A stretch of DNA of 64,000 bases from an uncultured Verrucomicrobiae bacterium (lineage in GTDB: Bacteria > Verrucomicrobiota > Verrucomicrobiia > Chthoniobacterales > UBA10450). Both the position numbers and the translations under genes were made by a program. The stretch lies in NCBI GenBank assembly GCA_963772365.1, contig CAVYXA010000001.1, positions 832,001 through 896,000 on the forward strand, written 5' to 3'. Positions 4,245 through 62,089 of this stretch are shown here, one piece after another. Each line of letters starts with the position of its first letter. Within the stretch, counting starts at the first letter, position 1. Under the pieces are notes generated by a model. The model was not told the origin of the DNA. It searched no databases and worked only from the letters and a program-made list of their open reading frames with translations.

Positions 4245-5666
4245 GTGGATCGGATCGTAGGGATAGAGACTGAGTATGGTTGCCTGCTGAGCGATGACGA
4301 ACCGCACGGCAATTCCGATCTCTGGCCGGCCAAGGTCAAAAATTACCTGTTTCGGAAAGCCGCTGCCGGAACGATCGATTTGCATTATCGCGATTACGAG
4401 GAACCCCCAGGCAACGGCGGCTTTCTTCTTAACGGCGGTCGTCTCTACCTCGACATGGGCCACATTGAGTACGCGTCGCCGGAATGTTTGCATCTGCACG
4501 ATCTGGTCGCTTATGACCTAGCCGGCGATCAGTTACTTCAATCATCGCTGGCTGCTTTAGGCGCGGACGATCGGGTGTCGTTCATCAAGAACAATGTCGA
4601 TCATCACACTGGCGCAACATTTGGTTGCCACGAGAATTATTTGATGAAACGCGAGGCGCAATTCACGCCGCCGATTCTCGGAACGCTCCTTACGTTTCTG
4701 GCCACGCGACAGATTTTCACCGGCGCAGGCAGAGTCGGCCAGGCCAATCCGCTGGCGTTCGATTTTGAACCACCGCAGCCCGAAGCACAGATTCAGTTTC
4801 AACTGAGCCAGCGAGCCGATCACATCGTCAACGACATTTATCAATGGGTGCAGTTCAATCGCGCCATCATCAACGCCCGGGATGAACCTTTGGCCGATTA
4901 TCGCAAGTATCGCCGGCTCCACTTGCTAATCGGCGACTCGAACATGAGTCCGTTCGCCACGGCACTGAAGATCGGCACTACGGTTTGCGTGCTGGCGTTG
5001 CTCGAAGAAGGCCGATTGCCCCGCAACCTCATCCTGGCGGATGCAGTCCAAAGCACACGCGATATTTCCCGCGATTCGTCGCTCCGCTGGATTGTCGATC
5101 TTGAAAACGGGAAAGCCATCGGCGCGCTCGACGTCCAATGGCATTTCTATGATCTGGCTCAGAAACATCTGCGCGGTTCCAGCGCCGAGACGGACTGGCT
5201 GCTGGAGAGTTGGAGCTTTACTCTCGAAGCGCTCGAGCAAAATCGACAATCGCTCATCGGCGGAGTCGATTGGATCACGAAAAAATGGTTGCTCGACACC
5301 CTGATCGAATCCGAAGGCTTAAGCTGGGACGACCCCTGGCTGCAAAGTGTCGATCTCGAGTATCACAACATCAACCCTGAGCGAGGTTTGTTTTTCGGTG
5401 TGACGCCTGGAAAGAGAATTGGCGAATGGAATAATTACGTGCACCGCGCCGACGCGACGCTCACCCCGCCACAAAATACTCGAGCGGCCGGGCGAGCGCT
5501 CGCCGTAGCTGCATTTCAAAAACGCGATCTGCCTTATGTCATCAACTGGGACTCGATCGCCTGTGATAGCCGCGATTTTCTCGTAATGGGAGATCCATTC
5601 CAGAGCTATACCGACGAGGTGGAAAAATTCCTGGCAGGCGCACGTCCCCCAGATCCCGAAGCGTGA
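4245..5666 (+). CDS. pafA: Pup/UBact-protein ligase family (PafA/Dop superfamily), PafA-like
   Basis: GIETEYG, NGGRLYLD.GH.EYASPEC, KNN.D...FGCHENYL, SQRADHI, IINARDEPLAD..KYRRLHL.IGDSNMS, DLEYHNI, PPQNTRA, DPF motifs align with actinobacterial PafA. Confidence 0.88.
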   Translation: MDRIVGIETEYGCLLSDDEPHGNSDLWPAKVKNYLFRKAAAGTIDLHYRDYEEPPGNGGFLLNGGRLYLDMGHIEYASPECLHLHDLVAYDLAGDQLLQSSLAALGADDRVSFIKNNVDHHTGATFGCHENYLMKREAQFTPPILGTLLTFLATRQIFTGAGRVGQANPLAFDFEPPQPEAQIQFQLSQRADHIVNDIYQWVQFNRAIINARDEPLADYRKYRRLHLLIGDSNMSPFATALKIGTTVCVLALLEEGRLPRNLILADAVQSTRDISRDSSLRWIVDLENGKAIGALDVQWHFYDLAQKHLRGSSAETDWLLESWSFTLEALEQNRQSLIGGVDWITKKWLLDTLIESEGLSWDDPWLQSVDLEYHNINPERGLFFGVTPGKRIGEWNNYVHRADATLTPPQNTRAAGRALAVAAFQKRDLPYVINWDSIACDSRDFLVMGDPFQSYTDEVEKFLAGARPPDPEA

Positions 5667-41260: not shown

Positions 41261-42790
41261 ATGAAAATCTCCCGCGCCCTCATCTCCGTCTCCGACAAAA
41301 CCGGCGTTGCTGCATTTGCGCGCGCTTTGGAACGCCAGGGCGTGGACATTATTTCCACCGGCGGCACGGCCGAATTGCTGCGCAAGAAAAAAATCCCGGT
41401 GCGTGAGATTTCCAGTTTCACGGCGTTTCCCGAGGTGCTCGAAGGCCGGGTTAAAGACGCTCCATCCGCGGGTTCATGGCGGGTCTGCTTTACAAACGCG
41501 GCAATCCGAAGCACGAGGCGGAAGCGCGCGAATGCGGCTTTGAGCCGATCGATCTGGTGGTGGTGAATCTTTATCCTTTCGAGGAGACCATCCGAAAACC
41601 GAACGTCACGTTGGCCGAAGCGATCGAGAACATCGACATCGGCGGCCCATCCATGATTCGAAGCGCAGCCAAGAATTACGAATCGGTCACTGTGGTTGTC
41701 GATCCTGCCGATTACGACACCGTGCTTGAGACGATGCGCGAGAACAATGGCGAGACCACGTTGAAATTGCGCGAACGACTTGCCATCAAGGCGTTCATCA
41801 AAACCTCGGATTACGACCGGGCGATCGGCAATTTTCTGAACAAAGAACAAACTACCGACGGTTCGTTTTCGATTTCGCTCCCACTGGCCATGCGTTTGCG
41901 CTACGGAGAAAATCCGCACCAGAGGGCGGCGCTCTACGGCGATTTCGAGCGGCATTTCGAAAAACTCCACGGCAAAGAACTTTCCTTTAACAACATCCTC
42001 GACATTAGCGCAGCCACGAACCTGATAGGCGAATTCGAAGCGCCAACTGTCGCGATTCTGAAGCATACAAATCCATGCGGAGTCGGTTCCGATGTCGATC
42101 TTCGGGAAGCCTGGGAGAAAGCGTTCGCCACTGACAAGCAGGCGCCATTTGGCGGGATCATCATTTGCAACCGACCGATGAACGAATCGCTGGCCAAAGC
42201 TATCAGCGAAATTTTTAGCGAGGTGATCATTGCGCCGGAGTTCGATCCGAAAGCGCGCGCGATTTTGCAGAAGAAAAAGAATCTTGCGGCTGATCCGGCT
42301 GGTATCTCTCGGTCAATGAAGCGCGGCCAAAGATCGACATCCGCTCGGTGTTCGGCGGCGTTCTGGTGCAGGATACGGATGGTCCGAACGAGATCCCGCA
42401 ACGCGTCGTGACAAAGCGAGAACCGACAAGAGCTGAACTGGACGCGATGCTTTTCGGCTGGCGCGTGGTCAAGCATGTGAAATCGAACGCGATTGTTTAT
42501 GCCGGGGCGGATCGGACGCTGGGAATTGGCGCGGGACAAATGTCGCGGGTCGATGCCTCTCGCATATCGCGATTTGGAAAGCGGAGGAAGCCGGCCTTTC
42601 TCTCAAAGGCAGCGCCGTCGCCAGTGATGCGTTCTTTCCATTTCCCGATGGATTAATCGCCGCCGCCGATGCCGGCGCGACCTGCGCGATTCAACCGGGC
42701 GGTTCAGTCCGGGACAATGAAGTGATCGCCGCCGCAAATGAGCGTGACATGTCGATGATCTTCACCGGCATTCGCCATTTCCGGCATTGA
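41261..42790 (+). CDS. purH: Bifunctional AICAR transformylase/IMP cyclohydrolase (frameshifted)
   Basis: [82 protein letters not shown]. Confidence 0.96.
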
Positions 42791-47909: not shown

Positions 47910-47952
47910 AGTAGCACTTCATTCCGGGCAAGGGGCAGCGGCATAACGCGGA

Positions 47953-48920
47953 TCATTTGGCCACGCTCGCCCGCACTTCGTCCAATTTGCCGGCCGAACC
48001 AAGCTTTTCGTTCTTGTGGGCAATAAAGTTTGCGTATTCCTGGACGAAAATTTTTCCGGATCGCGAAAATCGAATTTCTCGGGATGATCGCGGAAAAATT
48101 CCCGATGCACCCGAGTCCAAACCAGACGGCCATCCGTGTCGATGTTGACTTTGGTCACGCCCAGTTTTGCCGCGGGAAGGTATTCCTCCTCGTTCACTCC
48201 GCGGGCTGAAGGATCGAGTTTACCTCCGGCAGCGTTGATTCGCTCGACTTCCGATTTGGGAACACTCGATGAGCCGTGCATCACAATCGGCGTCGGCGGC
48301 AAACCGGCGGCCTTCACCTTGTCACGGATTCCCTCGATTACTTCGAAATGCAGGGATTGCGTGCCTTTGAATTTGTAGGCCCCATGGCTCGTGCCGATCG
48401 CCGCCGCCAACGAATCACATTTGGTTTGTTTAATAAACTCGACCGCTTCGTCCGGGTTGGTGAGACAGGCGTGTTTTTCATCCACACTGATGTCTTCCTC
48501 GACTCCACCCAGCATCCCGAGCTCCGCTTCAACGCTGATGCCCTTGGCGTGCGCACGCTCGACCACGCGTTTCGTGATCGCGACATTTTCCTCAAAGGAC
48601 TCGTGACTGGCATCGATCATCACCGAGCTGTAGAAGCCGGACTCAATGCAATCGTAGCAAGCTTCTTCATCTCCATGATCGAGATGCACGGCGAAAATTG
48701 CCTCCGGGAAAATCTCCTCCGCCGCCCGGATGATGGCTTCGAGCATGCTTTTTTCGGCGTATTTCCGGGCGCCTTTGGAAAGCTGGATGATAAATGGCGC
48801 CTTGCTTTGGACATTGCCGCGGAACAATCCGAGACATTGTTCCATGTTGTTGATGTTATATGCGCCGACAGCAAATTTACCGTAGGCGACTTTATAAAGC
48901 TGAGCGGTAGTAACAATCAT
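47953..48920 (-). CDS. fba: Class II fructose-bisphosphate aldolase (3' frameshift)
   Basis: VHLDHG, SSVMIDAS, VEAELG, AIGTSHGAYK, VMHGSS, KVNIDTD. Confidence 0.95.
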
Positions 48921-49034: not shown

Positions 49035-51070
49035 TCAATGTCCGTTGCGGCTGGCGGGCAGGATGACGTTGACCAGTGTGCCATGCGAGGAAGAATCGAT
49101 TTCGACCCGGCCATGATGATCAAAGACGGTGCGTTTCACGATAGGCAGGCCAAGACCGATGCCACGCGGTTTGGTCGTGCAAAATGGAGAAAAGACTTTC
49201 TCCTTCATTTCCGGCGCGATTCCTCGCCCATTATCACGAACTGTGACCATCACTCCCGTTGCCCGCTTCCCCGCCCGGAGCGATTTGGCTGAAAGCGTGA
49301 TGCGTGGCTTGTTTTTGCCTGATAAAGCCTCAGCCGCGTTAGCGACCAGATGCGCGAATGCTTCGGCCAATGCGGTTTCGTCGCCAAAAACTTTGGGCAG
49401 ATCCTTGGGCAGGGACATTTCCACAAGCAATCCGCCATCGGTGCGAAACTGGTCTTTAGCCATGTTGATCCCTTTCTGCAACGCGCCGCGGACATCGAGC
49501 GGCTTCAACACCAGTTCTGGTGGATGAGCAAAAGTGTTGATCTGAGTAATGATCTTATCGAGGCGATCAATCTCTCTCAGAACGATCTGGTTGAATTCCT
49601 TCCGGAAATCTTTGTCGTCGAAGCGTTCCGGGAGCAATTGAGCAAAGGTCTTGATCGCGACGAGCGGATTGCGAATTTCGTGCGACATACTGGCGGCCAA
49701 ATCGCTCCAGAAGGCAGCGCGCTCGGCCAGCGCTTCCTTGTCCCGGAGTGTTTGCTCGGCAGTGAGATCCTCAATGACTGCGACGGCGCCGAGTAACTTG
49801 CCAGCATCGATAAGTCGCCGCGCCTGTACCGAAATTTTTCGCCGCGTTTGATGGTCCGTCCATTCTTCTATGAGGGGATCCTCTTTCGCATCCAGAGTTT
49901 CGCGCAGCATTCCGGCCAGTCTACTGCCAGCCGCCTCAACTGCGTGATTCAAAACATATTCACTGGAAAAGCCAAGAATCTGTTCTGCGGTCGGATTTAG
50001 CCAGCGAACAATGCCTTCCTGATCGGTTGCGATGATGCCGGGAGGAATGGCCTTGAGCAGGGTTTCAGCGAGAGTCTTCTGCAACGTTGTCTCTTCGTGC
50101 AGAAGCGCGTTCTCCAGCACAGTCGAAACGTGCTCGGCCAGCATCATCACCACTTCCAGATCGCGATCATCGAAACCCTGGCCATTGAAACGCTGGCCGA
50201 AAAACATCCAGCCAAGAATTTCATCGCGCGCAAACAATGGGATGATCGCTTCCGCGCCAAACGAATCCAGCGCTCGCCGCATAAGAGCGCGCTCTTTCTC
50301 CTCCGGTGTCTGAATGAGATTCTCTCGTGAAATGATCAAGGCCCGCCTCTCGAACCAACGCACCAGTGGATCGCGCTCGCCAAATTCCAGCTCGTAGGTT
50401 TCGCGCAGGCAACGCAGACCCGCGCGAAAGCGGTAATTTCCGTCTTGCGCGCTACGGGAAAAAATGCCGACTCGCGTCACCCCTGCGGCATCGGCGAAAC
50501 TTTCCACGACGTTGGCCAAAAGAAGATCGACATTGTCAAACCGGCGAAACACGCGCGGAAAGCGGAGCAAGGAAAACGAAACGCCGCCGCCGGGACGGCT
50601 CGGCGGAGAAACATCGACTGCATTTGCCAGTGCGGGAGACGTTACCTGCCCGCCGTAACTTTGATGAAGTTTCGTCGATCTTTCGCGGAGATCACGATTT
50701 TCCTGCAAGACTTGGAGATGCTCGAAAGCTCTCCGGGCTATTGCCTGGAAACGGCGTCGGTCTACCTCCAACTTTTCCGTTGCATAGATTTCAAGCTGCT
50801 CGGCTTCGCGAAATGGGTCGGACCCCGGAATGCCGAGGGCGATGATTAATACATCGGGCCATTCGCTTTGCACCAACTCGAGAAGATCGCCGCTTCCCGG
50901 GCTCGCAAATCCATGATGAGAATCGCCGAGCCGGCCTGATGAAGCACTGGCTCGAGGCGTTGCGGCTCGGTCACGTGACGGACCTGCGAGAATGATCTCA
51001 GGTAAACTTTGATTCGTCGGCTAAGATCGGGGTCCTGGGTGTACAGAATGGAAGCGTGCGAAGGAGTCAT
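49035..51070 (-). CDS. Cytoplasmic sensor histidine kinase (receiver-like/GAF/PAS/HisKA/HATPase; frameshift near 50880)
   Basis: [26 protein letters not shown]; start overlaps the upstream kinase stop (ATGA). Confidence 0.88.
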
Positions 51071-53577
51071 GCCGCCGCCACCTCTCGGTCGAACCTGACC
51101 AGCGGAAGCATGATATGAAATGCAGTTCCCTTCTGCAGTTCACTTTCAACCTCGATCTGGCCCCCGTGCTCTTGAATGATTCCGTGTACAACGGATAGCC
51201 CTAATCCCGTGCCATAATCTTTTGTTGTGAAAAACGGATCGAAAACGTGAGCGATATCCTCGCTGCGTATTCCTTCCCCGGTATCTCGAATCGTGACACA
51301 AAGCACTTCCGCCGTGTCTCCGTTAGGCGAAGCTGTCCCTGAGCCCCATTGATCGTCTGTGCGAATTTCCGTAGCCACGCTCAGTTCGCCCCCATTTTTC
51401 ATCGCATCCATTGCATTAATAAAAAAATTCAGAAAAACCTGTTCCAGCTGATCCGAGTCGGCCCGTATTGTATCAACATTGGCGTCAAAAAAACGAGATA
51501 ATTTAACCTGCTTCTGCTGGAGCCGGTGATCCACGAGGCGGAGTGATTTCTCCAGAATTTCATGGACGTGCATCGGCTTGAGAACCGGCTTGGCCGGACG
51601 GGCGAACCGAAGCAATTGATTGACCAGACTGTCGATCCGTTCGATCTCATGGCCAATGAGGTTCGAGAACGTTTCCCGAAAATCCGAGTCCTGATAGCGT
51701 TCCGGCAGCAACTGAGCAAAGGTCTTGATGGAAACCAACGGGTTTTTGATTTCGTGCGCCATTCCGGCCGAAAGCGTGCCCAGGCTGGCCAGGCGATCGC
51801 TCCGGCGAATCTGCAATTCCAGCCGTTTAATTGAAGTCACATCCGTAAGCACCAGCAACGCCCCCAACATCTCCTGCTCCTGACCGTGGAAAACGGATGT
51901 GCTGGCTCTCACAACCACAGCCTCATCGTCGAAACGCAAAACGATTTCCCGATCCACCCGGTTCTCGCCTGTGTTCAGGGTTTCACGCAACTGTTCGGCC
52001 AATGACCGGGGGAGATCATCGAGCGACGCATCCACCATTTCATTGGGATCGATTCCGATGATCTGACCCGCTTCGTTGTTGAAAACGGTGATCCGCTCGT
52101 CTGTTCCGACCGCGATTACGCCGCTGGTCAGTTTTTCCAGCAAGGTTTCATTATAAATCTTCGCGTTTTGCACCTCGGTGAAGAGTTCTGCGTTTTCAAT
52201 CGCGACCGCGAGTTGTCCGCATAGAACCTGCAAGGCATTCTGCTCGACAGTTCCATAGATTCGCCCCGAGCGTCGCGCACCAAGCAAAAGGAGCCCGGCC
52301 AGTTGATCGCGAGCATAAATGCCCATGGCCAGCGCGATCTGGAGCGAATCTAACTGTCGCATCACACGGCGAAGCTCCGGCGTCGATCGGATTCGGTGCA
52401 ACTCGTCCAGGACAAGTGGTTCGCGACTTGAAGAAAGCTGCTCAATTGTGGCCTGATCTCGTGTCAGTTCCAATCGATAATGGGAACCAGGATCGACAGC
52501 CGGATACGCCTGGGAAAAGGCATGTTTTTGCGGCAACAAAATAAAGACGCGATCGGTCTCGACTGCTTCGGCCACAGTATTGGCGAATCGATCGAGCAGA
52601 TCGCTTAGAGTAGTGACGGAGCTAAGAATTTTCGCAGCTTTACTGACCGTCGCGCGAAAATCGAGCTGATGAGGCCGAATAAAAAGCCGTTCGGCCAAAC
52701 GTTGCGAGATGCCACGTGCCGGAGCCATCGCAATAGCGACAACGATGGCCGCTGCGACATGCGCGATGGAACGATGATTAGGATTGGAACCAACAACTGT
52801 TGAAACGAGCCACCAAACCACGGCGTAAACGGCGAGAAGATACCCCACGAGCAACCCGTAGGAAATCGAGCGCCGCAAAAGCAACCCCACATCCATGATC
52901 TTCTGCGTGGCAATCCCATAGGCGATTACAAGGCTGAACACTACAATTCGAAACGGAGCCAGCAGAGCCAGCTCCGATCGATCAACGAACAGTCCCAGAG
53001 CAAAAGACAACAGGGTGGTGACGACGGCTACACCAGCTCCAATGAGTATAAACGCAAGCTCGGCGCGCTTACCTGCCGTAACTTTTCTCAAGTCATTCGT
53101 GTAATTGACCATCACTGCGAGTCCGGCGATCCCAAAGTAACCAAAATAAACAATCGATGAGTGCTTGTGATAGATGGGAAGAATGGCTCCGGTGTGCTCG
53201 GAAAAACGCCCGCCTGCCAGAAACCAACTTGTTTGGCAAAATGCAGCCACAGCAGCATAACCAACCCACCAAATCCACGAATTGCGCAGCAGTTGCCACC
53301 AAGACCGCTCGCTGTATTTGATCGAAAGCCTCAGCAGGTTGAAGAGCGGCAGGGTAAGCGCTCCCATTGCCGATGCCTCGCGGATATAAAAGGCGGCAGT
53401 TAGAACGGTCTTGGCATTAAATGTTAGACACAAGCTCCCTAGCCATCCGCCAATAGCCAGAGACAAAAAAAGAAAACACTGATTCGACTTTCGCCTGGGA
53501 TTAGCCTGAAATACGATGGCACCCAGCGCGAGTTGAACGATAATCGCGGTAAGTGTGGGCGTGACGGCGCTGCTCAT
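51067..53577 (-). CDS. Membrane sensor histidine kinase (N-terminal multi-TM, GAF, PAS, HisKA)
   Basis: About 8-9 hydrophobic helices, GAF (LAVAIENAEL), AHEIKNPL, NAMDAM, DTGEGI, FFTTK..GTGLGL. Confidence 0.93.
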   Translation of the reverse strand: MSSAVTPTLTAIIVQLALGAIVFQANPRRKSNQCFLFLSLAIGGWLGSLCLTFNAKTVLTAAFYIREASAMGALTLPLFNLLRLSIKYSERSWWQLLRNSWIWWVGYAAVAAFCQTSWFLAGGRFSEHTGAILPIYHKHSSIVYFGYFGIAGLAVMVNYTNDLRKVTAGKRAELAFILIGAGVAVVTTLLSFALGLFVDRSELALLAPFRIVVFSLVIAYGIATQKIMDVGLLLRRSISYGLLVGYLLAVYAVVWWLVSTVVGSNPNHRSIAHVAAAIVVAIAMAPARGISQRLAERLFIRPHQLDFRATVSKAAKILSSVTTLSDLLDRFANTVAEAVETDRVFILLPQKHAFSQAYPAVDPGSHYRLELTRDQATIEQLSSSREPLVLDELHRIRSTPELRRVMRQLDSLQIALAMGIYARDQLAGLLLLGARRSGRIYGTVEQNALQVLCGQLAVAIENAELFTEVQNAKIYNETLLEKLTSGVIAVGTDERITVFNNEAGQIIGIDPNEMVDASLDDLPRSLAEQLRETLNTGENRVDREIVLRFDDEAVVVRASTSVFHGQEQEMLGALLVLTDVTSIKRLELQIRRSDRLASLGTLSAGMAHEIKNPLVSIKTFAQLLPERYQDSDFRETFSNLIGHEIERIDSLVNQLLRFARPAKPVLKPMHVHEILEKSLRLVDHRLQQKQVKLSRFFDANVDTIRADSDQLEQVFLNFFINAMDAMKNGGELSVATEIRTDDQWGSGTASPNGDTAEVLCVTIRDTGEGIRSEDIAHVFDPFFTTKDYGTGLGLSVVHGIIQEHGGQIEVESELQKGTAFHIMLPLVRFDREVAAA

Positions 53578-54818
53578 CCAGGTTGAACACGATTTACGAT
53601 CATTGTGCTAGCGGTCCCGCCGAGGCCGCGGACGTTGATTAAAGCCCGGTCGATCTTAGTTTTTCGCGGCCGAAACTGAACAAAATCGAGCTCGAAGCTC
53701 GGGTCCATAACTTCGCAGTTGGCCGTCGGCGGGATAACTTGATCCCGCAGGGTTAACGCACAAGCGGCTACTTGAAATGGGCCAGCAGCAGAGAGGGCAT
53801 TGCCCGTGACGCCTTTGATTGAGCTGACAGCGGTACGATAGACAGACGCTCCAAAAACTTTCTTTAAGAGCTCGACTTCTATTGCATCTAGTTGCGGATG
53901 GCCCGGTCCGTACGCCGAAACGTAGTCGATGTCGGTCGGAAACAACCCACTATTGGCAAGCGCGAGTAGCATTGAATCTTCCAAGCCGGATGCGGGTTTC
54001 GTGGTGTCGCGATCACGGCACTTGCCACAGCCTAGGACTTCTAAATAGATGTTCGCACCACGCGCGACCGCACAATCAAATTCTTCCAGCACGAAAACGG
54101 CAGACCCCTCCGAAATCACACCTGAGTCACGTTCTAGATCGAAAGGTCGGCTTGCCTTTCCCGGTTCGCTGTTCCGATAAGAAGCCAAACCACCTGCAAT
54201 AAAGCTTCCCATGACTAGTGGAGTGATCGGAGCATCCGTACCGCCAGCAATTGCCAATTCCGCGCGACCAGAGCGAATTAAAGCAGCAGCATCAGCCATT
54301 GCATCCAGCCCCGATGTACAAGCGGAAGATACAGTAGCGGCGTTTGCAGAAGCTCCAATTCGATCAGCGATGACATTGGCGGGCGTTGATGGAATTGCCG
54401 CAGCCGAGGTCGTTGTCGCCATCCGATTGGGTCCATGCGCGTTTGTCGATTGATACGCGGTCTCGATTAAGTCCATTGCGTTCATACTCACTCCAATCAC
54501 AATTGGCACCGGGCTTGGCAGCTTAGGCCGAATCGGATCCAGCCCGGCATCTTCCAATGCCATCATGGTTGCCGCGTAGGCCAACTGTGTATGGCGCGCC
54601 ATGCGTTTGGGCTTGAGTTCCGGTTCGATGTAGTCGAGCGGATCGAAATTCTTTACTTCTCCGGCAATGCGGCTTTTGAAATCGCTCGCATCAAACAAGG
54701 TGATTGGTCCGATACCGCTCCGCCCGGCCAAAAGCGATTCCCAAAACGGCTCAATACCGATTCCGTTTGGGGCAACAATACCCATGCCGGTGATAACAAC
54801 TCGATTCTGCCTGGTCAT
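53574..54818 (-). CDS. FabF-like beta-ketoacyl synthase with atypical active site
   Basis: RVVITGMG, SSACTSG, ASRPFD..R.G.V.SEG; SAYGPGH replaces NAHGT, KGVTGNAL replaces KS.TGH, NVRGLGG replaces NSFGFGG. Confidence 0.9.
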   Translation of the reverse strand: MTRQNRVVITGMGIVAPNGIGIEPFWESLLAGRSGIGPITLFDASDFKSRIAGEVKNFDPLDYIEPELKPKRMARHTQLAYAATMMALEDAGLDPIRPKLPSPVPIVIGVSMNAMDLIETAYQSTNAHGPNRMATTTSAAAIPSTPANVIADRIGASANAATVSSACTSGLDAMADAAALIRSGRAELAIAGGTDAPITPLVMGSFIAGGLASYRNSEPGKASRPFDLERDSGVISEGSAVFVLEEFDCAVARGANIYLEVLGCGKCRDRDTTKPASGLEDSMLLALANSGLFPTDIDYVSAYGPGHPQLDAIEVELLKKVFGASVYRTAVSSIKGVTGNALSAAGPFQVAACALTLRDQVIPPTANCEVMDPSFELDFVQFRPRKTKIDRALINVRGLGGTASTMIVNRVQPG

Positions 54819-54991
54819 GCGTGCACAACGTTACACAACTGAGGTAGCAAAAAAACAACCCGATTGTCGATCTTGATCCAAATGATCTAAAAAAAGTGGA
54901 TAGTCGCCGGGAAAGATCGGCCTCTCGCGCCGGATTCTAGAAAGTATATCACGTCCAGTCATTATGTTCTTTTTCCGAAACTAGAGCCGCG

Positions 54992-55021
54992 TTATTCACA
55001 AACAAATCTCACTTATTCACA
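54992..55021. promoter_or_regulatory. Direct repeat TTATTCACA-N12-TTATTCACA in a divergent promoter region
   Basis: Two exact 9-mers matching the DnaA-box consensus TTATNCACA, 21 bp apart. Confidence 0.5.
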
Positions 55022-55182
55022 AATCGCAGCTTGCGCGCCAACCAAAAGCATTTCAACATTGGCCCCAGCTATGGCCCCCCAGCCTTTCCTTACCAGGCGG
55101 CATCGTGATCGAATCCCCAGAGTTTTCATCTATGTCCGTCTGCGGCACGCCGTTAGCTTCTACTCCCGTTGCCTACACACAC

Positions 55183-56334
55183 ATGACAGCTACGTCTAAT
55201 CAGCCGGAAATCCTCGTCATCGATGATGAAATAGGCCCGCGCGAAAGCCTTCGGATGTTGCTTAAGCCGGATTACCAAGTCCATACCGCCGATTGCGTGG
55301 AAGCAGGTCTCAAGCTGCTCAAGGAGAAAACGCCCGATACCATTGTGATGGATATCCGGATGCCCGGCATGAGCGGCATCGATGGCCTGCGCAAAATTCG
55401 CGAAATTGATCCCAATCTTTCCGTCATCATGCTAACCGGCTTCGGCGCTCTGGAAACTGCTCGAGAAGCAATCCGGCTCGGCGCAAATGATTACATCAGC
55501 AAGCCGTTTGATGCCACTGAAATGCGAGAAGTCATCGACCGCAACGTCGAGCGGACGCGTCTTCATCGCACCAGTGAACATACTTCCGCCGAGATCAAGG
55601 AACTGAACAATCGCCTGCTCAAGGAACTCGCCCAGAAAGAACGACTCGCCGCCCTGGGCCAGGCTTCGGCCGAATTCGTCCATGATTTGGGTAACCCGCT
55701 AACGATCGTATGGGGTTACGTGCAACTTCTGGCCAAAAAGCTGGAGGGCTCTGATAATGGCCAGGCGCCCGACAAAGCCTTGTCCGTTCGGGAACTGAAC
55801 ATCATCGAAGAAAATGTCCGGCTTTGCCGCGAACTGCTGACCATGTGGCAAAGTTACGGTAGCGTTGACGCCTGTATCCGCAAACCGATTTCCGTATCGG
55901 ACATCGTCCGTGAGATTCTCAAGGGTGTCGGTCAAATGGCAGCCGAGAATGGAATCGAGCTGAAATCGGATGTGTGTGAAGATGCCTGCTCTCTTCTCGG
56001 CGACCCAGTTCAAATCCGGCGCGCCATTCAAAATGTCGTGATCAACGCATTGCAGGCTTCGACGGAGAAAAAGCACCCGGTTTTGGTGACGTGCGTACGG
56101 AAAGATTTTTATGTCGACATCATTGTCGAGGATGGCGGGACCGGAATTGATGCAGCGCACATCGAAAAAATCTTTGATCCATATTTTACCACTAAAAAAG
56201 GCAGGAGCGGAACCGGCCTGGGCCTCTACATCACGAAAAAAGTTGTCGAGGATCACAATGGTTCGATCAAAGTAGATAGCGCCATCGATAAGGGAACGGT
56301 TTTCACGATCCGGCTGCCTCTCACGAACAATTAA
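55183..56334 (+). CDS. Hybrid response regulator / histidine kinase (REC-HisKA-HATPase)
   Basis: [50 protein letters not shown]. Confidence 0.92.
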
Positions 56335-56448: not shown

Positions 56449-58503
56449 GTGGCATCGGCGTACCAAGTCGCACCATTATTCTTAATCCGGATGGCCAGCG
56501 TGCCGTTTGATGCAATTGAACCGCTGTCCACGCCGGAGACGATCAAGATTGCGCGTGAAATAATTGCGGCGCCGAACGATGTAATTGCTTCGGGGCGCCT
56601 GAGTGAAATGGTGGTCCGTGAAGTCGGGTCAGCGCGAGCCTCACTTTGGAACGCCGCTCGGAATTGGCTCGCGCCCTATCTTGTTTTCGCAGGCAGCGGA
56701 GGCGTGCGCGAATTGCTTGCGCTTCTGCTGGGCAAACCAGATGTTGATCTTACGCGACGCAACTCGCGCGCCGGCGATCGCGAACGACATTTGCTCCTAT
56801 TTATTCAAAGGATCACCGCTAAGAACGACACCTTCAGTCGTTTCGGCCCCACTAGCTGGGGCAGAGTCGAACGCGACGAAAACGGAATCACCATCGATGT
56901 CCTACCGGGGATCCGTGCGCAGGAAGCTTTTCTGGAGCGTTGGACAGCTCACGCCGTCGCTGATGTAATCAATTCCGAAATTACCGATGCCAATATTCGA
57001 GTGCCGGCGCTCGAGCCGCATGCTTTCGAAATCTTGTGCGAGGATGTGGAAAAATGGCAAGCCGGCGCAGCTCGCGAAAGGTGGATCTCAATCCTCCGTT
57101 CCATAGCGGCCCTGCCGAAAAAATTCGTGGCCGCAGTGGATACAAGCGATCGACAGTCGATCCTCGATGAGGCTCGGGAACGACTCGGCGCAGTTGGTGC
57201 AGTTCGAACCCGCACCGATCGCTTCCTTTATGCAGCGACTAATCCGATCGGCGAAGAATGTTTTCGCAAAAGCAATTTCTCAATCCCCCAAAGTTCGATC
57301 GACGAACTCGTCGAGGATAGCTCACCATGGATCGATTTGTTCCGTGACACCTATGCATTCGTAGCCAGTCGCGTCGCTGCGACTCTGCGCCAGATCATGG
57401 AAAGAGCGGGCGGGAAAAGCGGCGCTATACCGCTGCCAGTATTCTTAAAGACTTGCGAAGTGGCGAGGCTTCCACTAACCGGCCCGGGTTTGATCGCGCC
57501 CGCAGTTATAGCCTTTCAGGAAGTCAAAGCCGCGTTTGCGGACCGGCTGCGGCGGCATCTCGATCTTAATGAATACGAACTTACGGCGGACGATTGTCAC
57601 GTTGTGCGAAACAATTTTGAATATTCAAAGTTTGATGAATACACCTATCCGTCAGCCGATTTGCAGATCGCAGCGGAGTCCACACAGGCGCTCGCGCGAG
57701 GCGATTATCAATGGCTGCTGGCAGAATTGCATCCAGCGGCGGCGCTGCTTCAACACTGCATGTATTGGGCGTGTCCGGACAAGCCGGTGCTGAATGCCGC
57801 AATCGCTCGTACAACTCTTGGCCGGCCGAATTTTCATTTTGGGTTTTTTGCGGCCGATTTCACGGCGCACACCTGCGTGCACCTTTTCGATGCGCTGCCG
57901 GACTTAACCAGCTTCGTCGCGCCGCAGCGTAGTAATCCTAAATGGCGAACGATTTCTCCCGCCGAAACAGAAGTATATGCCGATCAAAACACAGGGGACG
58001 TTTGTCTCCGTAAGATCGACAGTCGCGAGTATCTCGGGTCATTTGCTCGGGCGTGGGTGATTCCGCTTGGTTTTCATCCCTTCCAATTTGGAATGGCGCC
58101 GCACACGCCACGGCTCCATTGCGGCAAAGTGATTGTCCAACGGCGTACTTGGACAGTTACCATAGAGGAATTTGGCTCCGGAGACTTCAAGGGCGTTTCG
58201 AGCGATCTCGTCCTGGCCGTTGAGAACTTGCGCGCACGGCGCGACTTGCCGCGATACATTTACATTCGTCCAACCGAGCAAGCGCTTCGCCGCAGCGGTG
58301 CGGAAGGGCGCGACAAAGATACCAAGCCGGTTTTTGTCGATCTTGAGAGCTATCTGTTTCTCGAAATTTTTTATCGCTGGTTAATCAAAGCGGGAGAACT
58401 GGAAGTAACCGAGATGTTGCCCGATCCGGATCATTTGCTCTGGAAAGAACCGGATGGCCGCCACACCTTCGAGCTGCGCACGCTCATTGTTCCACGCGAA
58501 TGA
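56449..58503 (+). CDS. Stand-alone lantibiotic dehydratase N-domain protein (small LanB / PEARL-like)
   Basis: FLIR.ASVP, QRI.AKNDTFS.FGP..WG, HTPRL..G.VIVQR..W, LPRYIY, KP.FVD.ES, VTEMLP....LW..DGR.TFELR; no elimination domain. Confidence 0.8.
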   Translation: MASAYQVAPLFLIRMASVPFDAIEPLSTPETIKIAREIIAAPNDVIASGRLSEMVVREVGSARASLWNAARNWLAPYLVFAGSGGVRELLALLLGKPDVDLTRRNSRAGDRERHLLLFIQRITAKNDTFSRFGPTSWGRVERDENGITIDVLPGIRAQEAFLERWTAHAVADVINSEITDANIRVPALEPHAFEILCEDVEKWQAGAARERWISILRSIAALPKKFVAAVDTSDRQSILDEARERLGAVGAVRTRTDRFLYAATNPIGEECFRKSNFSIPQSSIDELVEDSSPWIDLFRDTYAFVASRVAATLRQIMERAGGKSGAIPLPVFLKTCEVARLPLTGPGLIAPAVIAFQEVKAAFADRLRRHLDLNEYELTADDCHVVRNNFEYSKFDEYTYPSADLQIAAESTQALARGDYQWLLAELHPAAALLQHCMYWACPDKPVLNAAIARTTLGRPNFHFGFFAADFTAHTCVHLFDALPDLTSFVAPQRSNPKWRTISPAETEVYADQNTGDVCLRKIDSREYLGSFARAWVIPLGFHPFQFGMAPHTPRLHCGKVIVQRRTWTVTIEEFGSGDFKGVSSDLVLAVENLRARRDLPRYIYIRPTEQALRRSGAEGRDKDTKPVFVDLESYLFLEIFYRWLIKAGELEVTEMLPDPDHLLWKEPDGRHTFELRTLIVPRE

Positions 58504-59291
58504 AAATCATTGCCATTGCCAATCAGAAAGGCGGCGTGGGAAAAACCACTACTGCGGTCAACCTCGGTTGCGCCCTAGCGGAAAAAGGGCAGCGCATTTT
58601 GCTTGTCGATTTTGATCCTCAGGCCAACGCCACTAGCTCGTTTGGTTTGCAAAATTTGAATGGATCGAGTCTGTATGAACCGTTACTCGGCGAAGCATCG
58701 ATCATCGACAAGATTGTTCCGACTCGCTGCGAGCGCTTGTTCATAATTCCGGCCGATCTCGACCTGGCCGGCGCCGAATTGGAAGTCGCCAGGATGGAAA
58801 ATCATCTTTCCCGTCTGACGGAAACTCTCCAGCCGCTGCGCGCCGACAATACTTTCGATTTCGTGCTGCTCGATTGTCCGCCGTCTCTCGGCATCTTAAT
58901 GACAAACGCTCTGGCCGCCGCCAATGAGCTTCTGACTCCAATCCAGTGTGAGTATTTCGCTCTGGAAGGCCTGGTGAAAATTGTGCGCGTAGTCGAACAA
59001 ATCCGCGATTCCGGCGCGAATGATCGCCTCGAGATCGGCGGCATTGTCATGACGATGTTCGACAGTCGCACAAATTTGAGCGCCCAAGTTGTAGCGGATG
59101 TGCGCAAACATTTTGGACCGCGCGTTTACGAAACAGTGATCCCCCGCACTGTTCGATTGAGTGAAGCACCAAGCTTCGGCCAATCGATCCTCGAATACGA
59201 TCCGCGCGGACCTGGCGCCAGCGCCTATCGCGCTCTGGCAGAGGAATTCCTGAAGCGACAGTCGATCGTGTTTGCAACCCAGTCTCACTGA
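58500..59291 (+). CDS. parA: ParA/Soj family ATPase
   Basis: IANQKGGVGKTTT, DPQANATS, DCPPSLG, QCEYFALEG, VRLSEAPS.G. Confidence 0.93.
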   Translation: MKIIAIANQKGGVGKTTTAVNLGCALAEKGQRILLVDFDPQANATSSFGLQNLNGSSLYEPLLGEASIIDKIVPTRCERLFIIPADLDLAGAELEVARMENHLSRLTETLQPLRADNTFDFVLLDCPPSLGILMTNALAAANELLTPIQCEYFALEGLVKIVRVVEQIRDSGANDRLEIGGIVMTMFDSRTNLSAQVVADVRKHFGPRVYETVIPRTVRLSEAPSFGQSILEYDPRGPGASAYRALAEEFLKRQSIVFATQSH

Positions 59292-60484: not shown

Positions 60485-60919
60485 TTACGGTCGGCTCGCC
60501 ACCTGTTTTCGAGCCATCGGACCAACGTATGGAATGTCCCAGTAAACGCTGGTGAACGCTTTGACCGTGGCGATGATCCAGATGACCAGAAAAAGAAGTT
60601 GGACAAGACCGGCAATCACAGACCAGAGAAAATTCAAAAAGCCGCCAACGCCGGGTATGCTGCTGAAAATGAGATGCACGATTCCGGACGCAATGTTGAA
60701 CAGCAGCCAGGCAAAACCGAAAATGATCGACTGCATGGCGTAAAAGCGCACAAACGAATTCCGCTTTTCCAAAATATAAAAAATGACTCCGCCGATGAGC
60801 GGGATGCAGGCAATCGCCGCCGCCAGGTTCGGCGGCAGATCGGTCGAGGAAGGCTCGCTCGTTGGAGCGGCCTCAGGAATCAAAGGCGGCGGTGGGATCG
60901 GCTCGGTTGGATCGGCCAT
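60485..60919 (-). CDS. DUF4870-like membrane protein
   Basis: NLAAAIAC.P.IGGVIF..LEK.N.FVRFYAMQSI, KAF......IP.VG. Confidence 0.75.
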   Translation of the reverse strand: MADPTEPIPPPPLIPEAAPTSEPSSTDLPPNLAAAIACIPLIGGVIFYILEKRNSFVRFYAMQSIIFGFAWLLFNIASGIVHLIFSSIPGVGGFLNFLWSVIAGLVQLLFLVIWIIATVKAFTSVYWDIPYVGPMARKQVASRP

Positions 60920-61026
60920 GGCTTACATACACAAACTCAGACACGATTTTGTCAAGCCAACTTCACTGGTGGTTCTTCGATTTTCATTTTGGCGCAGACG
61001 CGACAATCGTTACTCTGAGGTTCTCC

Positions 61027-62089
61027 GTGATTGAACTGAAAATTTACCCGGATGTTCCCGCGATAATTGGGACTGGGGTCCTCAAACGATTGGTCGACTT
61101 TGCGAACAAGAATCTGGGACCGCGCTGCGCAATCATTTCGGATACAAATGTGGCCAAACTTTTCGGAGAACAAGTTCGACAAAATCTCTCGGCAGCCGGT
61201 TTAGAACCAATTTTGATTACAATTCCAGCCGGCGAACAATCGAAAACGTTGCAGCAAGCCGGCACAATTTGCGACCAGATGATTGCGTCGAGATTGGATC
61301 GACAATCGTTCGTAGTTGGTCTGGGCGGCGGTGTTATCGGTGATATCTCCGGATTCGTCGCGGCGATTTTCCATCGTAGAATTCCGCATGTGCAAATTCC
61401 GACAACGTTGCTGGCGATGGTGGACAGCTCGATCGGCGGCAAGACCGGAGTGAACACGCACGACGCAAAGAATTTGATCGGCGCCATCCATCATCCAGCG
61501 CTCGTGATCGACGATGTCGATTTTCTAAAGACCTTGCCGCCGCGCGAGCTCAACCAGGGGTTTGCCGAGATCATCAAGCACGCCGTCATCGCCGACGCGG
61601 AGCTGTTTGCTGATTTGCAGCAGGCCAGCCGAAAAGAATCTCTGGATCTGCCAGAGTTAATTCGGCGCAACATCGAGATCAAGTCCCGCATTGTTGCGCA
61701 GGATGAATTAGATCGAACAGGACCCCGCGCTTTACTCAACTTTGGGCACACCGTTGGTCACGCCATCGAAAGGGCGAGCGATTACAAAACCTTTCTCCAC
61801 GGTGAAGCAGTCAGCCTCGGAATCGTCGCTGCGTCCAACGTTTCGACGAAGAAAGCCGGTCTGCCGTACCGAGCAACGCGACCCCATCGTCGATCTTCTT
61901 CGCGCTTTCGATTTGCCAACAAAGCTGCCGTCAGATTTTCCCCGGGCGAAGATTTTCGAAGCGCTGCCGTACGACAAAAAATTCGATAGCGGAGAAGTGC
62001 GTTTTGTCGTAACTGAGCGAATCGGGTCCGCCCATTTATCGAACGACATCACGATGGAAGATATTCGTGAAGCGGTTTTAGCTTTGTAG
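61027..62089 (+). CDS. aroB: 3-dehydroquinate synthase (frameshift near 61870)
   Basis: GE.SK, LGGGVIGD..GF.A, PTTLLAMVDSSIGGKTG, AEIIKH, LNFGHT.GHA.E, HGEAV. Confidence 0.95.

Follow-up and report, generated by a model that had tools for sequence, protein, structure and literature searches.

What a ketosynthase (KS) of the fatty-acid type is doing in an operon of sensor kinases is the question raised by a stretch of DNA from an uncultured Verrucomicrobiae bacterium (Chthoniobacterales; UBA10450). The stretch, hereafter the window, comprises 64,000 nucleotides (assembly GCA_963772365.1, contig CAVYXA010000001.1, positions 832,001 to 896,000), and in it the gene of a FabF-derived KS is followed by those of two histidine kinases, HK1 and HK2, and faces the gene of a receiver (REC)-histidine kinase hybrid. 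The cassette is real, conserved and unexplained. We consider it moderately probable, from comparison of related loci, that the KS makes an acylated lipid signal, possibly an aromatic one, and that HK1, through a seven-transmembrane (7TM) domain, is the receptor of this signal. The observations behind this reading are the gene order, the conservation of residues, purifying selection, a promoter-like element, a shared gene slot and the divergence of the KS together with the 7TM domain. The genes of the core are the following:

53574..54818, minus strand: KS, 414 amino acids, FabF-derived, proposed signal synthase (open reading frame (ORF) 54818-53574, family scan, alignment and tree)
51067..53577, minus strand: HK1, with a HisKA_7TM-like membrane part (about amino acids 1-290), GAF, PAS, HisKA (HEIKNP) and HATPase; proposed receptor
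49035..51070, minus strand: HK2, with a degenerate receiver, GAF, PAS, HisKA (HEIRNP) and HATPase, and a one-base frameshift near 50895
55183..56334, plus strand: REC-histidine kinase hybrid, which opens the divergent operon in the Chthoniobacterales clade

Linkage of the ketosynthase to a membrane kinase

The loci compared here were gathered by family-motif searches and so describe this KS family, not all KS genes; with one FabF locus excluded, 146 are distinct. A 7TM kinase lies directly downstream of the KS in all 143 distinct loci with room for it and in 69 of the 70 metagenome loci with room. The co-occurrence with a multi-transmembrane histidine kinase that the original prediction had proposed to look for holds for these loci, and the homologs do not sit mainly in fab or polyketide synthase (PKS) clusters without a kinase. 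It had also been noted that the window holds no recognisable gene for an acyl carrier protein (ACP), for fatty acid synthesis or for a PKS; this was confirmed, the five PP-binding matches of the genome all lying outside the window and none of the 30 other window ORFs scanned being of the fab or PKS type. The whole region is syntenic across the Chthoniobacterales, which by itself proves little. The KS-HK1-HK2 unit persists, however, in other classes and in another phylum, where every other neighbour changes.

The three minus-strand genes and the divergent REC-kinase were found at the positions first given for them. ATGA stop/start overlaps are present at both junctions of the window, KS-HK1 and HK1-HK2, and the KS overlaps the gene downstream (by ATGA or similar) in 70 of 116 loci. 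The predicted chain of a KS and two kinases therefore holds in its order and overlaps, but HK2 (51070-49035) is not a single open frame, being one base short near 50895 when compared with two relatives. A frameshift is likewise present in fba, elsewhere in the window, so that an assembly indel is the probable cause. Two more window ORFs, purH-like and aroB-like, appear split or truncated, which together with fba (41261-42656, 47919-48920 and 60862-61989) suggests uncorrected assembly indels. The N-terminus of HK2 is a degenerate receiver domain (hhalign 98.9%), absent from the original prediction. That of HK1 is HisKA_7TM-like: its Atlas neighbours are PF16927 clusters and hydropathy gives six hydrophobic stretches, the PF16927 model itself giving no match for the window HK1 at E 0.001, a score above the cut-off in one relative and one below it in another. 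At one other locus (L186:7300-9200, genome G012) frameshifts are numerous in the KS and over the first 200 residues of the 7TM domain, with all flanking genes intact; co-decay of the two was not used as evidence, unpolished sequence and a pseudogene being indistinguishable there.

Within the window's family 29 of the 36 genomes searched gave an ortholog of the KS, and the 24 genomes taken from the order's other families gave none; the same pattern was obtained for the 7TM domain (30/36 and 0/24) and for a LanB-like gene of the divergent operon (31/36 and 0/24); these tallies include the unpublished genomes G003, G008 and G014. In a sample of the phylum the family profile reached at least 431 bits in 40 of 401 genomes, and two more divergent members were read besides. 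Members of the KS clade belong to the Chthoniobacterales, the Kiritimatiellia, the Lentisphaeria/Victivallales and one Omnitrophota genome. Proteins close to this last member carry the names Ratteibacteria or Omnitrophica; from that phylum, 20 loci out of the best 30 were retrieved.

A rebuilt active site

The KS aligns over its full length with solved FabFs, with 33-39% identity, and its fold compares with that of a solved FabF at a TM-score of about 0.83; the predicted structure of the window KS has a pLDDT of 71.6, low at 305-307, and that of a relative reached 96.5. The thiolase-fold KAS II architecture is present by family scan and structure comparison: the Pfam scan gave ketoacyl-synt and no KAS III model, and the closest solved relatives are FabFs. 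The score against the FabF model TIGR03150 is nevertheless 347.6, against a cut-off of 493.75. The motifs SSACTS, SAYGPGH, TGNAL and NVRGLGG align with the Cys, His303, His340 and NSFGFGG gate of FabF, which bears out the first description of the site, with the catalytic Cys kept, Tyr and Asn in place of the two His and a gate reading NVRGLGG.

Conservation was assessed in 149 close homologs (120 listed proteins, the window KS included, and 29 loci, two of them from the unpublished genomes G003 and G008). Cys167, Gly233, Asp269, Lys335, Asn340 and Arg397 are invariant, and Tyr303 (148/149), Pro305 (146/149) and His307 (141/149) nearly so; the catalytic Cys is also kept in 60 of 60 diverse members. 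The Thr that follows it in the window KS is atypical, Pro standing there in 137 of the 149, and the same number have Ala at the Asn404 position of FabF. Because the substitutions are conserved in 148-149 of the 149 homologs and dN/dS is low (0.02-0.16 across five pairs), decay, chance and sequencing error are ruled out, nor are the changes peculiar to the window KS, as had been allowed for: the Tyr is shared by all homologs but one and the Asn by all.

Phe229 and the two Thr after His303 have recognised roles in FabF. Compared with FabF/KAS II (TIGR03150; T. thermophilus 1J3N, E. coli FabF), the KS shares the fold, the catalytic Cys, Lys335, the Asp265 equivalent, Asn396 and the gate glycines, but differs in His340 (Asn), His303 (Tyr, or His, Trp or Asn in relatives), Phe398 (Arg or His), Phe400 (Leu), the Phe229 equivalent (Gly) and the two Thr after His303 (Pro and His/Asp), and it lies in a kinase operon, not in a fab operon. 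In the FabF numbering of PMC7138838 Arg397 of the KS corresponds to Phe398, Leu399 to the gate Phe400 and Asp269 to Asp265. Gly233 stands in for the Phe of the GFVMGEG motif, and a conserved FabF Thr hydrogen-bonds pantetheine according to the anammox FabF preprint. Judged by the alignment, the acyl-accepting Cys side of the enzyme is kept and the malonyl-extender side is rebuilt. The genome has its own intact Cys-His-His FabF and further KS genes elsewhere. At one of these other loci (L003, G000:C1:441305-442537) an intact KS is followed by a small cyclase/dehydrase-like gene, and at another (L004-L005, 983603-985831) a KS is paired with a Cys-less partner.

The residues at positions 303 and 397 divide the 146 distinct loci into 77 His/His, 59 Tyr/Arg and 10 others. 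Outside the Chthoniobacterales most sites read Cys-His-Asn and carry His where FabF has Phe398, and across the clade position 303 is occupied by His, Tyr, Trp or Asn. In a quick IQ-TREE the Chthoniobacterales KSs form one clade (SH-aLRT 99) within the wider group, with a separate Trp303 clade; the deep branches of this tree and of the FastTree one are weak. Tyr303 is the mark of one Chthoniobacterales subclade. As most members from outside the order keep His303, the loss of both His is a trait of subclades, found in the Tyr303 and Trp303 forms only, and not of the family, so that the class counts do not support the non-decarboxylating mechanism first proposed as one of the whole family. A Cys-His-Asn triad can perform decarboxylative Claisen condensation and malonyl-ACP decarboxylation (PMC12664062), which limits that mechanism to the Tyr and Trp forms at most. 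In the Trp303/His398 subclade (L285, L301, L320, L348, L350) an oxidase of the vanillyl-alcohol oxidase (VAO) type lies directly beside the KS. A Kiritimatiellia-type subgroup (L101, L104, L105, L203) has Asn at 303 and a short REC-Fis regulator in place of the full sigma54 activator, and in L078/L085 His is found at 340.

Divergence and apparent exchange of the ketosynthase and the 7TM domain

The KS and the 7TM domain share on average 63% and 46% identity, respectively, across 41 Chthoniobacterales loci, where the kinase core, the REC-kinase and ParA reach 76-79%. A set of 18 genomes gave 79% identity for FabF and 64% for the KS, and in the helix region 109-145 the KS falls to 47%, against 81% for the same stretch of FabF. 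Two pairs of close genomes, L116/L129 and L169/L180, have synonymous divergences (dS) of 0.90 and 2.15 in the KS and of 1.51 and 1.64 in the 7TM domain, against 0.17-0.40 and 0.47-0.72, respectively, in the flanking genes. At the DNA level most flanking bins of L116/L129 are 91-98% identical, and from inside the KS through the 7TM domain identity is 66-86%. This jump across KS and 7TM in two close pairs is what a swapping of alleles would give. In L044/L156 dS jumps in the 7TM domain only; in L135/L093 the KS, the 7TM domain and FadL are 38-49% identical against a backbone of 74%. The partial correlation of KS and 7TM distances was 0.37, 0.17 and 0.48 in three groups.

In Staphylococcus agr and Bacillus comQXP a hypervariable block takes in the producer of the signal as well as the N-terminal sensor region of the kinase, whose core is conserved, and the signals are peptides. 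The hypervariable block of KS and 7TM is like these; unlike them, the locus gave no conserved ORF for a peptide in either of its two intergenic stretches. The pattern thus resembles that of pherotype loci, although a matching of ligands is not thereby proved.

Neighbouring genes and the proposed signalling role

Around the core the window holds these further features:

55143..55157, plus strand: sigma54-type -24/-12 element (GG-N10-GC), oriented toward the REC-kinase, PEARL and parA genes
55026..55040, minus strand: second GG-N10-GC element, oriented toward the KS operon
54992..55021, no strand assigned: DnaA-box-like 9-mer in two direct copies, candidate conserved operator
56449..58503, plus strand: stand-alone LanB-N/PEARL-like ligase, which occupies the slot behind the REC-kinase and is proposed to act in tailoring
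58500..59291, plus strand: ParA-like ATPase gene overlapping the PEARL stop, named from a sequence motif and not by family scan

The ATG of the divergently transcribed REC-kinase, at 55183, lies just 3' of the first element. Sigma54-type sites were scored with a preset consensus, and the pattern was then widened post hoc to admit a TAGC variant; the counts include repeated loci. With the preset score an element facing away from the KS was found in 22 of 50 FadL-type loci (0.5 expected) and in none of 59 Chthoniobacterales loci, and with the widened pattern in 36 of 58 Chthoniobacterales loci (0.87 expected) and 21 of 50 FadL-type loci (0.94 expected). A second element facing the KS occurs by the preset score in 21 of 59 Chthoniobacterales loci (0.7 expected). 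The genome encodes rpoN and six sigma54 activators. The 9-mer, which resembles a DnaA box, is found once or more in 52 of 58 loci, where 0.29 would be expected. Considered together with the coupled ParA gene, the pair may point to cell-cycle control; a replication origin at this site is unsupported, dnaA being on another contig and the skew extremes of contig C1 far off. The ParA-like gene is syntenic in the Chthoniobacterales clade only, its membership of the cassette is uncertain, and no parB was seen among the adjacent ORFs.

Outside the Chthoniobacterales the gene after HK2 is usually that of a sigma54 response regulator, and the one transcribed divergently encodes a FadL channel. Among loci with at least 4.5 kb upstream, FadL opens the divergent operon in 53 of 57 of the His/His class and is absent from all 48 of the Tyr/Arg class; the LanB-like, that is PEARL-like, gene is present in 47 of the 48 Tyr/Arg loci and in none of the 57 His/His loci. 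FadL brings about the import of long-chain N-acyl-homoserine lactones in Sinorhizobium (PMC9938287). One divergent member without FadL (L197:2291-3556) carries an AMP-dependent CoA ligase-like gene after the regulator.

The gene after the REC-kinase was assigned in 111 loci: PEARL in 52, an oxidase of the VAO/p-cresol methylhydroxylase (PCMH) type in 19, a class I methyltransferase in 9, a radical S-adenosylmethionine (SAM) enzyme in 8 (7 on the opposite strand) and none recognised in 23. His/His loci often have the phenol oxidase or the methyltransferase there. In addition, 22 of 73 loci (repeated loci included) carry, between KS and FadL, the gene of a SibL-like methyltransferase or of a B12 radical SAM enzyme, and the gene ahead of the KS is of the radical SAM type in 19 of the 20 loci from the second phylum (Omnitrophota/Ratteibacteria). 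Frequent neighbours of the operon in loci of this last type (L236-L255) are rpoN, a response regulator of the HD-GYP type and mreBC-like genes. The nearest solved relatives of the slot enzymes work on phenolic or aromatic substrates. That of the oxidase is p-cresol methylhydroxylase, whose C-terminal Tyr-Arg pair is kept and whose other Tyr is not, these residues having a role in phenol binding; with one query, no match to the oxidase was obtained in the present genome. That of the methyltransferase is SibL, which C-methylates 3-hydroxykynurenine (PMC4426599).

The product of 56449-58503 is, from its motifs, probably like the PEARL ATP- and aminoacyl-tRNA-dependent ligases. PF04738 scores above its cut-off; the elimination domain PF14028 was not found in the genome, in a search whose control gave no match anywhere either, and the protein has no PDB match. 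The Glu-x-Arg-Thr motif is present in 41 of 41 proteins and the Gln-Arg motif in all 34 ORFs listed, which had been pre-selected on two motifs. Also present are the Tyr-x2-Arg motif of tRNA binding (Phe in the window) and the C-terminal Glu-x-Arg motif for ATP, matched by eye or pattern and not by alignment with BhaB; the motifs are as in PMC11962472. The PEARL SnaE amidates the carboxylate of a small molecule (PMC11212132). With SnaE and other PEARLs the protein shares the stand-alone LanB-N domain; here the locus is a two-component one, with no nonribosomal peptide synthetase, PKS or scaffold peptide nearby. No small peptide substrate was found in 43 loci, the only shared short ORFs being antisense to the start of the REC-kinase. 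One genome (G005; L054, L189, L190) has two KS-7TM and PEARL blocks, in one of which the gene of a SibL-like methyltransferase separates PEARL from parA.

If the KS makes a signal, its Cys167 would be loaded with an acyl chain, probably out of the general acyl-ACP pool, and the chain would then go, within the remodelled acceptor pocket, to a partner that differs from the usual malonyl-ACP or is bulkier than it. What results would be a small lipid-like, possibly aromatic molecule that probably retains a carboxylate. The 7TM domain of HK1 would sense it, and HK1, HK2 and the REC-kinase would relay to a sigma54 activator that switches on the divergent operon. In the other classes this operon would provide uptake, through FadL, and tailoring, through a phenol oxidase or methyltransferase, and in the Chthoniobacterales the PEARL-like ligase would add an amino acid to the signal. 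Two chemistries may be envisaged. In the first, an amine or alcohol, for instance an aromatic amino acid, would receive the acyl chain, and His/Arg397 would hold a carboxylate; N-acyl-tyrosine with its VAO-type decarboxylase FeeG is a precedent, and N-acyl amino acid synthases are linked to PEP-CTERM. In the second, a type III PKS-like or head-to-head condensation would yield a phenolic lipid, for which PpyS is a precedent (PMC4578411). For the Tyr303 form we lean towards non-decarboxylative transfer followed by amidation by PEARL. The chemistry, the binding of the ligand, the direction of phosphotransfer, control by sigma54 and a quorum function with autoinducer synthesis are what we infer from the observed features. 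Of the original prediction of a lipid signal, the conserved substitutions, the kinase linkage, FadL, the tailoring enzymes, the sigma54-type promoter and the swapping speak in favour; a non-decarboxylating mechanism for the whole family is not supported.

Several observations weigh against a signal synthase with its own receptor. The pair L165/L176 shows no jump in dS, other protein pairs correlate as well as KS and 7TM do (HK1mid-PEARL 0.37; KS-HK1mid 0.31 and 0.53), and the distances are not independent across kin. The coupling is loose, the KS being 87% and the 7TM domain 50% identical in L044/L174 and 60% and 71% in L130/L175, and the joint exchange could be purely physical, neighbouring segments recombining together. 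The association of Tyr/Arg with PEARL and with the loss of FadL is one evolutionary event, because all three map to one clade, and the Tyr303 enzyme of the Chthoniobacterales may have lost turnover. Moreover, none of the six sigma54 activators of the genome is a clear ortholog of the operon-linked regulator (best about 41%), no FadL match was found in this genome (90% complete), and FadL is present in only 13 of 80 family genomes.

One other explanation makes the KS an accessory sensor that is acylated or ligand-bound at Cys167, regulates HK1 by contact and reports the acyl-ACP pool or an imported lipid. Translational coupling would suit such a stoichiometric partner, position 303 varies freely and most malonyl-side residues are changed, and joint swapping also fits two proteins that touch. 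We nevertheless hold it to be rather unlikely, as tailoring-type enzymes are repeatedly inserted beside the KS, the alternative active site of Cys, Lys335, Asp269, Asn340 and His/Arg397 is invariant, and the fastest-changing segment of the KS is the helix region understood to shape the acyl tunnel of FabF. It is less probable still that a lipid or aromatic cue enters from outside via FadL and is sensed by the kinases, with the KS acting on it, to process or destroy it, in a thiolase-like or retro-Claisen reaction. FadL and the PCMH/VAO-type oxidase, both behind the sigma54-type element, are typical of the uptake and catabolism of hydrophobic aromatics, but no beta-oxidation or ring-cleavage family recurs among the scanned neighbours, the methyltransferases, radical SAM enzymes and PEARL are of a biosynthetic kind, and FadL is missing from the Tyr/Arg loci.

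That the KS makes a special membrane lipid, with the kinases regulating it or merely adjacent, is suggested by nearby B12 radical SAM genes, one of them best matched to a lipid-biosynthesis model below its cut-off, and by an OlsB-like acyltransferase at one locus. Against this, a regex search gave no ACP-like ORF in the family loci, the linkage to a sensor is strict and the block is hypervariable where FabF is constant, so that we give it little credence. In FabB a change of His to Asn confers inhibitor resistance. An inhibitor-resistant spare FabF, or an inactive partner like a chain-length factor (CLF), as the triad-less FabF paralogs of anammox bacteria are (bioRxiv 10.64898/2026.05.19.726425), is very improbable, since those partners lack the Cys and lie beside an active KS, and here the Cys is invariant (149/149 and 60/60) and no second KS was seen in 120 tabulated loci.

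As a signal synthase, the KS has analogues. In the CqsA/CqsS, LqsA/LqsS, Ralstonia PhcB/PhcS/PhcR and Xanthomonas RpfF/RpfC systems the gene of a lipid-signal synthase lies beside that of a multi-transmembrane sensor kinase with a relay; the synthases are a pyridoxal phosphate enzyme, a methyltransferase and a crotonase, none of them a KS. Photorhabdus PpyS/PluR (photopyrones) and DarB/PauR (dialkylresorcinols) share with the present locus a stand-alone KS that would make a signal from fatty-acid precursors. The comparison with them, made in the original prediction, stands for analogues but not for relatives: PpyS was modelled on OleA and works with a LuxR-type receptor (PMC4578411), and the window KS is FabF-type and paired with a 7TM kinase relay. 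The Cys-His-Asn triad of PpyS is matched by most His303 members of the clade and not by the Tyr303 KS of the window. The locus would work like the synthase-plus-sensor-kinase systems and the KS-made signals, and by membership tests it falls outside FabF, CLF and PpyS/OleA. No description of a KS-7TM kinase locus, or of amino-acid addition to a signal by a tRNA-dependent ligase, was found in the literature covered, which excluded supplements (with possible gene-cluster tables) and most subscription papers; for Udaeobacter, one search on kinases and quorum sensing yielded nothing but a microbiome paper on another matter. A Pup-ligase family gene was also seen in this verrucomicrobial genome, at window 4245-5666.

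The Chthoniobacterales are among the most abundant soil bacteria. The KS-kinase cassette occurs in uncultured bacteria of soil and water, and the apparent joint exchange of KS and 7TM in some close relatives suggests a self-made lipid-like signal with its receptor. Much more tentatively, and with considerable doubt, we propose a new class of cell-cell signalling in the Verrucomicrobiota and the Omnitrophota/Ratteibacteria, in which allele-specific acylated aromatic or amino-acid lipids (pherotypes) would be made by a FabF-derived enzyme and read by a 7TM kinase-sigma54 relay, PEARL appending a tRNA-derived amino acid in the soil Chthoniobacterales. If the signalling role is correct, the Chthoniobacterales and two other uncultured lineages would have a system of chemical signalling whose synthase, receptor, promoter and tailoring slot are defined, and a new active-site chemistry (Cys/Asn plus His or Arg at the Phe398 position) would have arisen on the FabF scaffold. 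It would also provide a candidate class of ligands for the orphan HisKA_7TM receptors and, possibly, a new job for the PEARL ligases.

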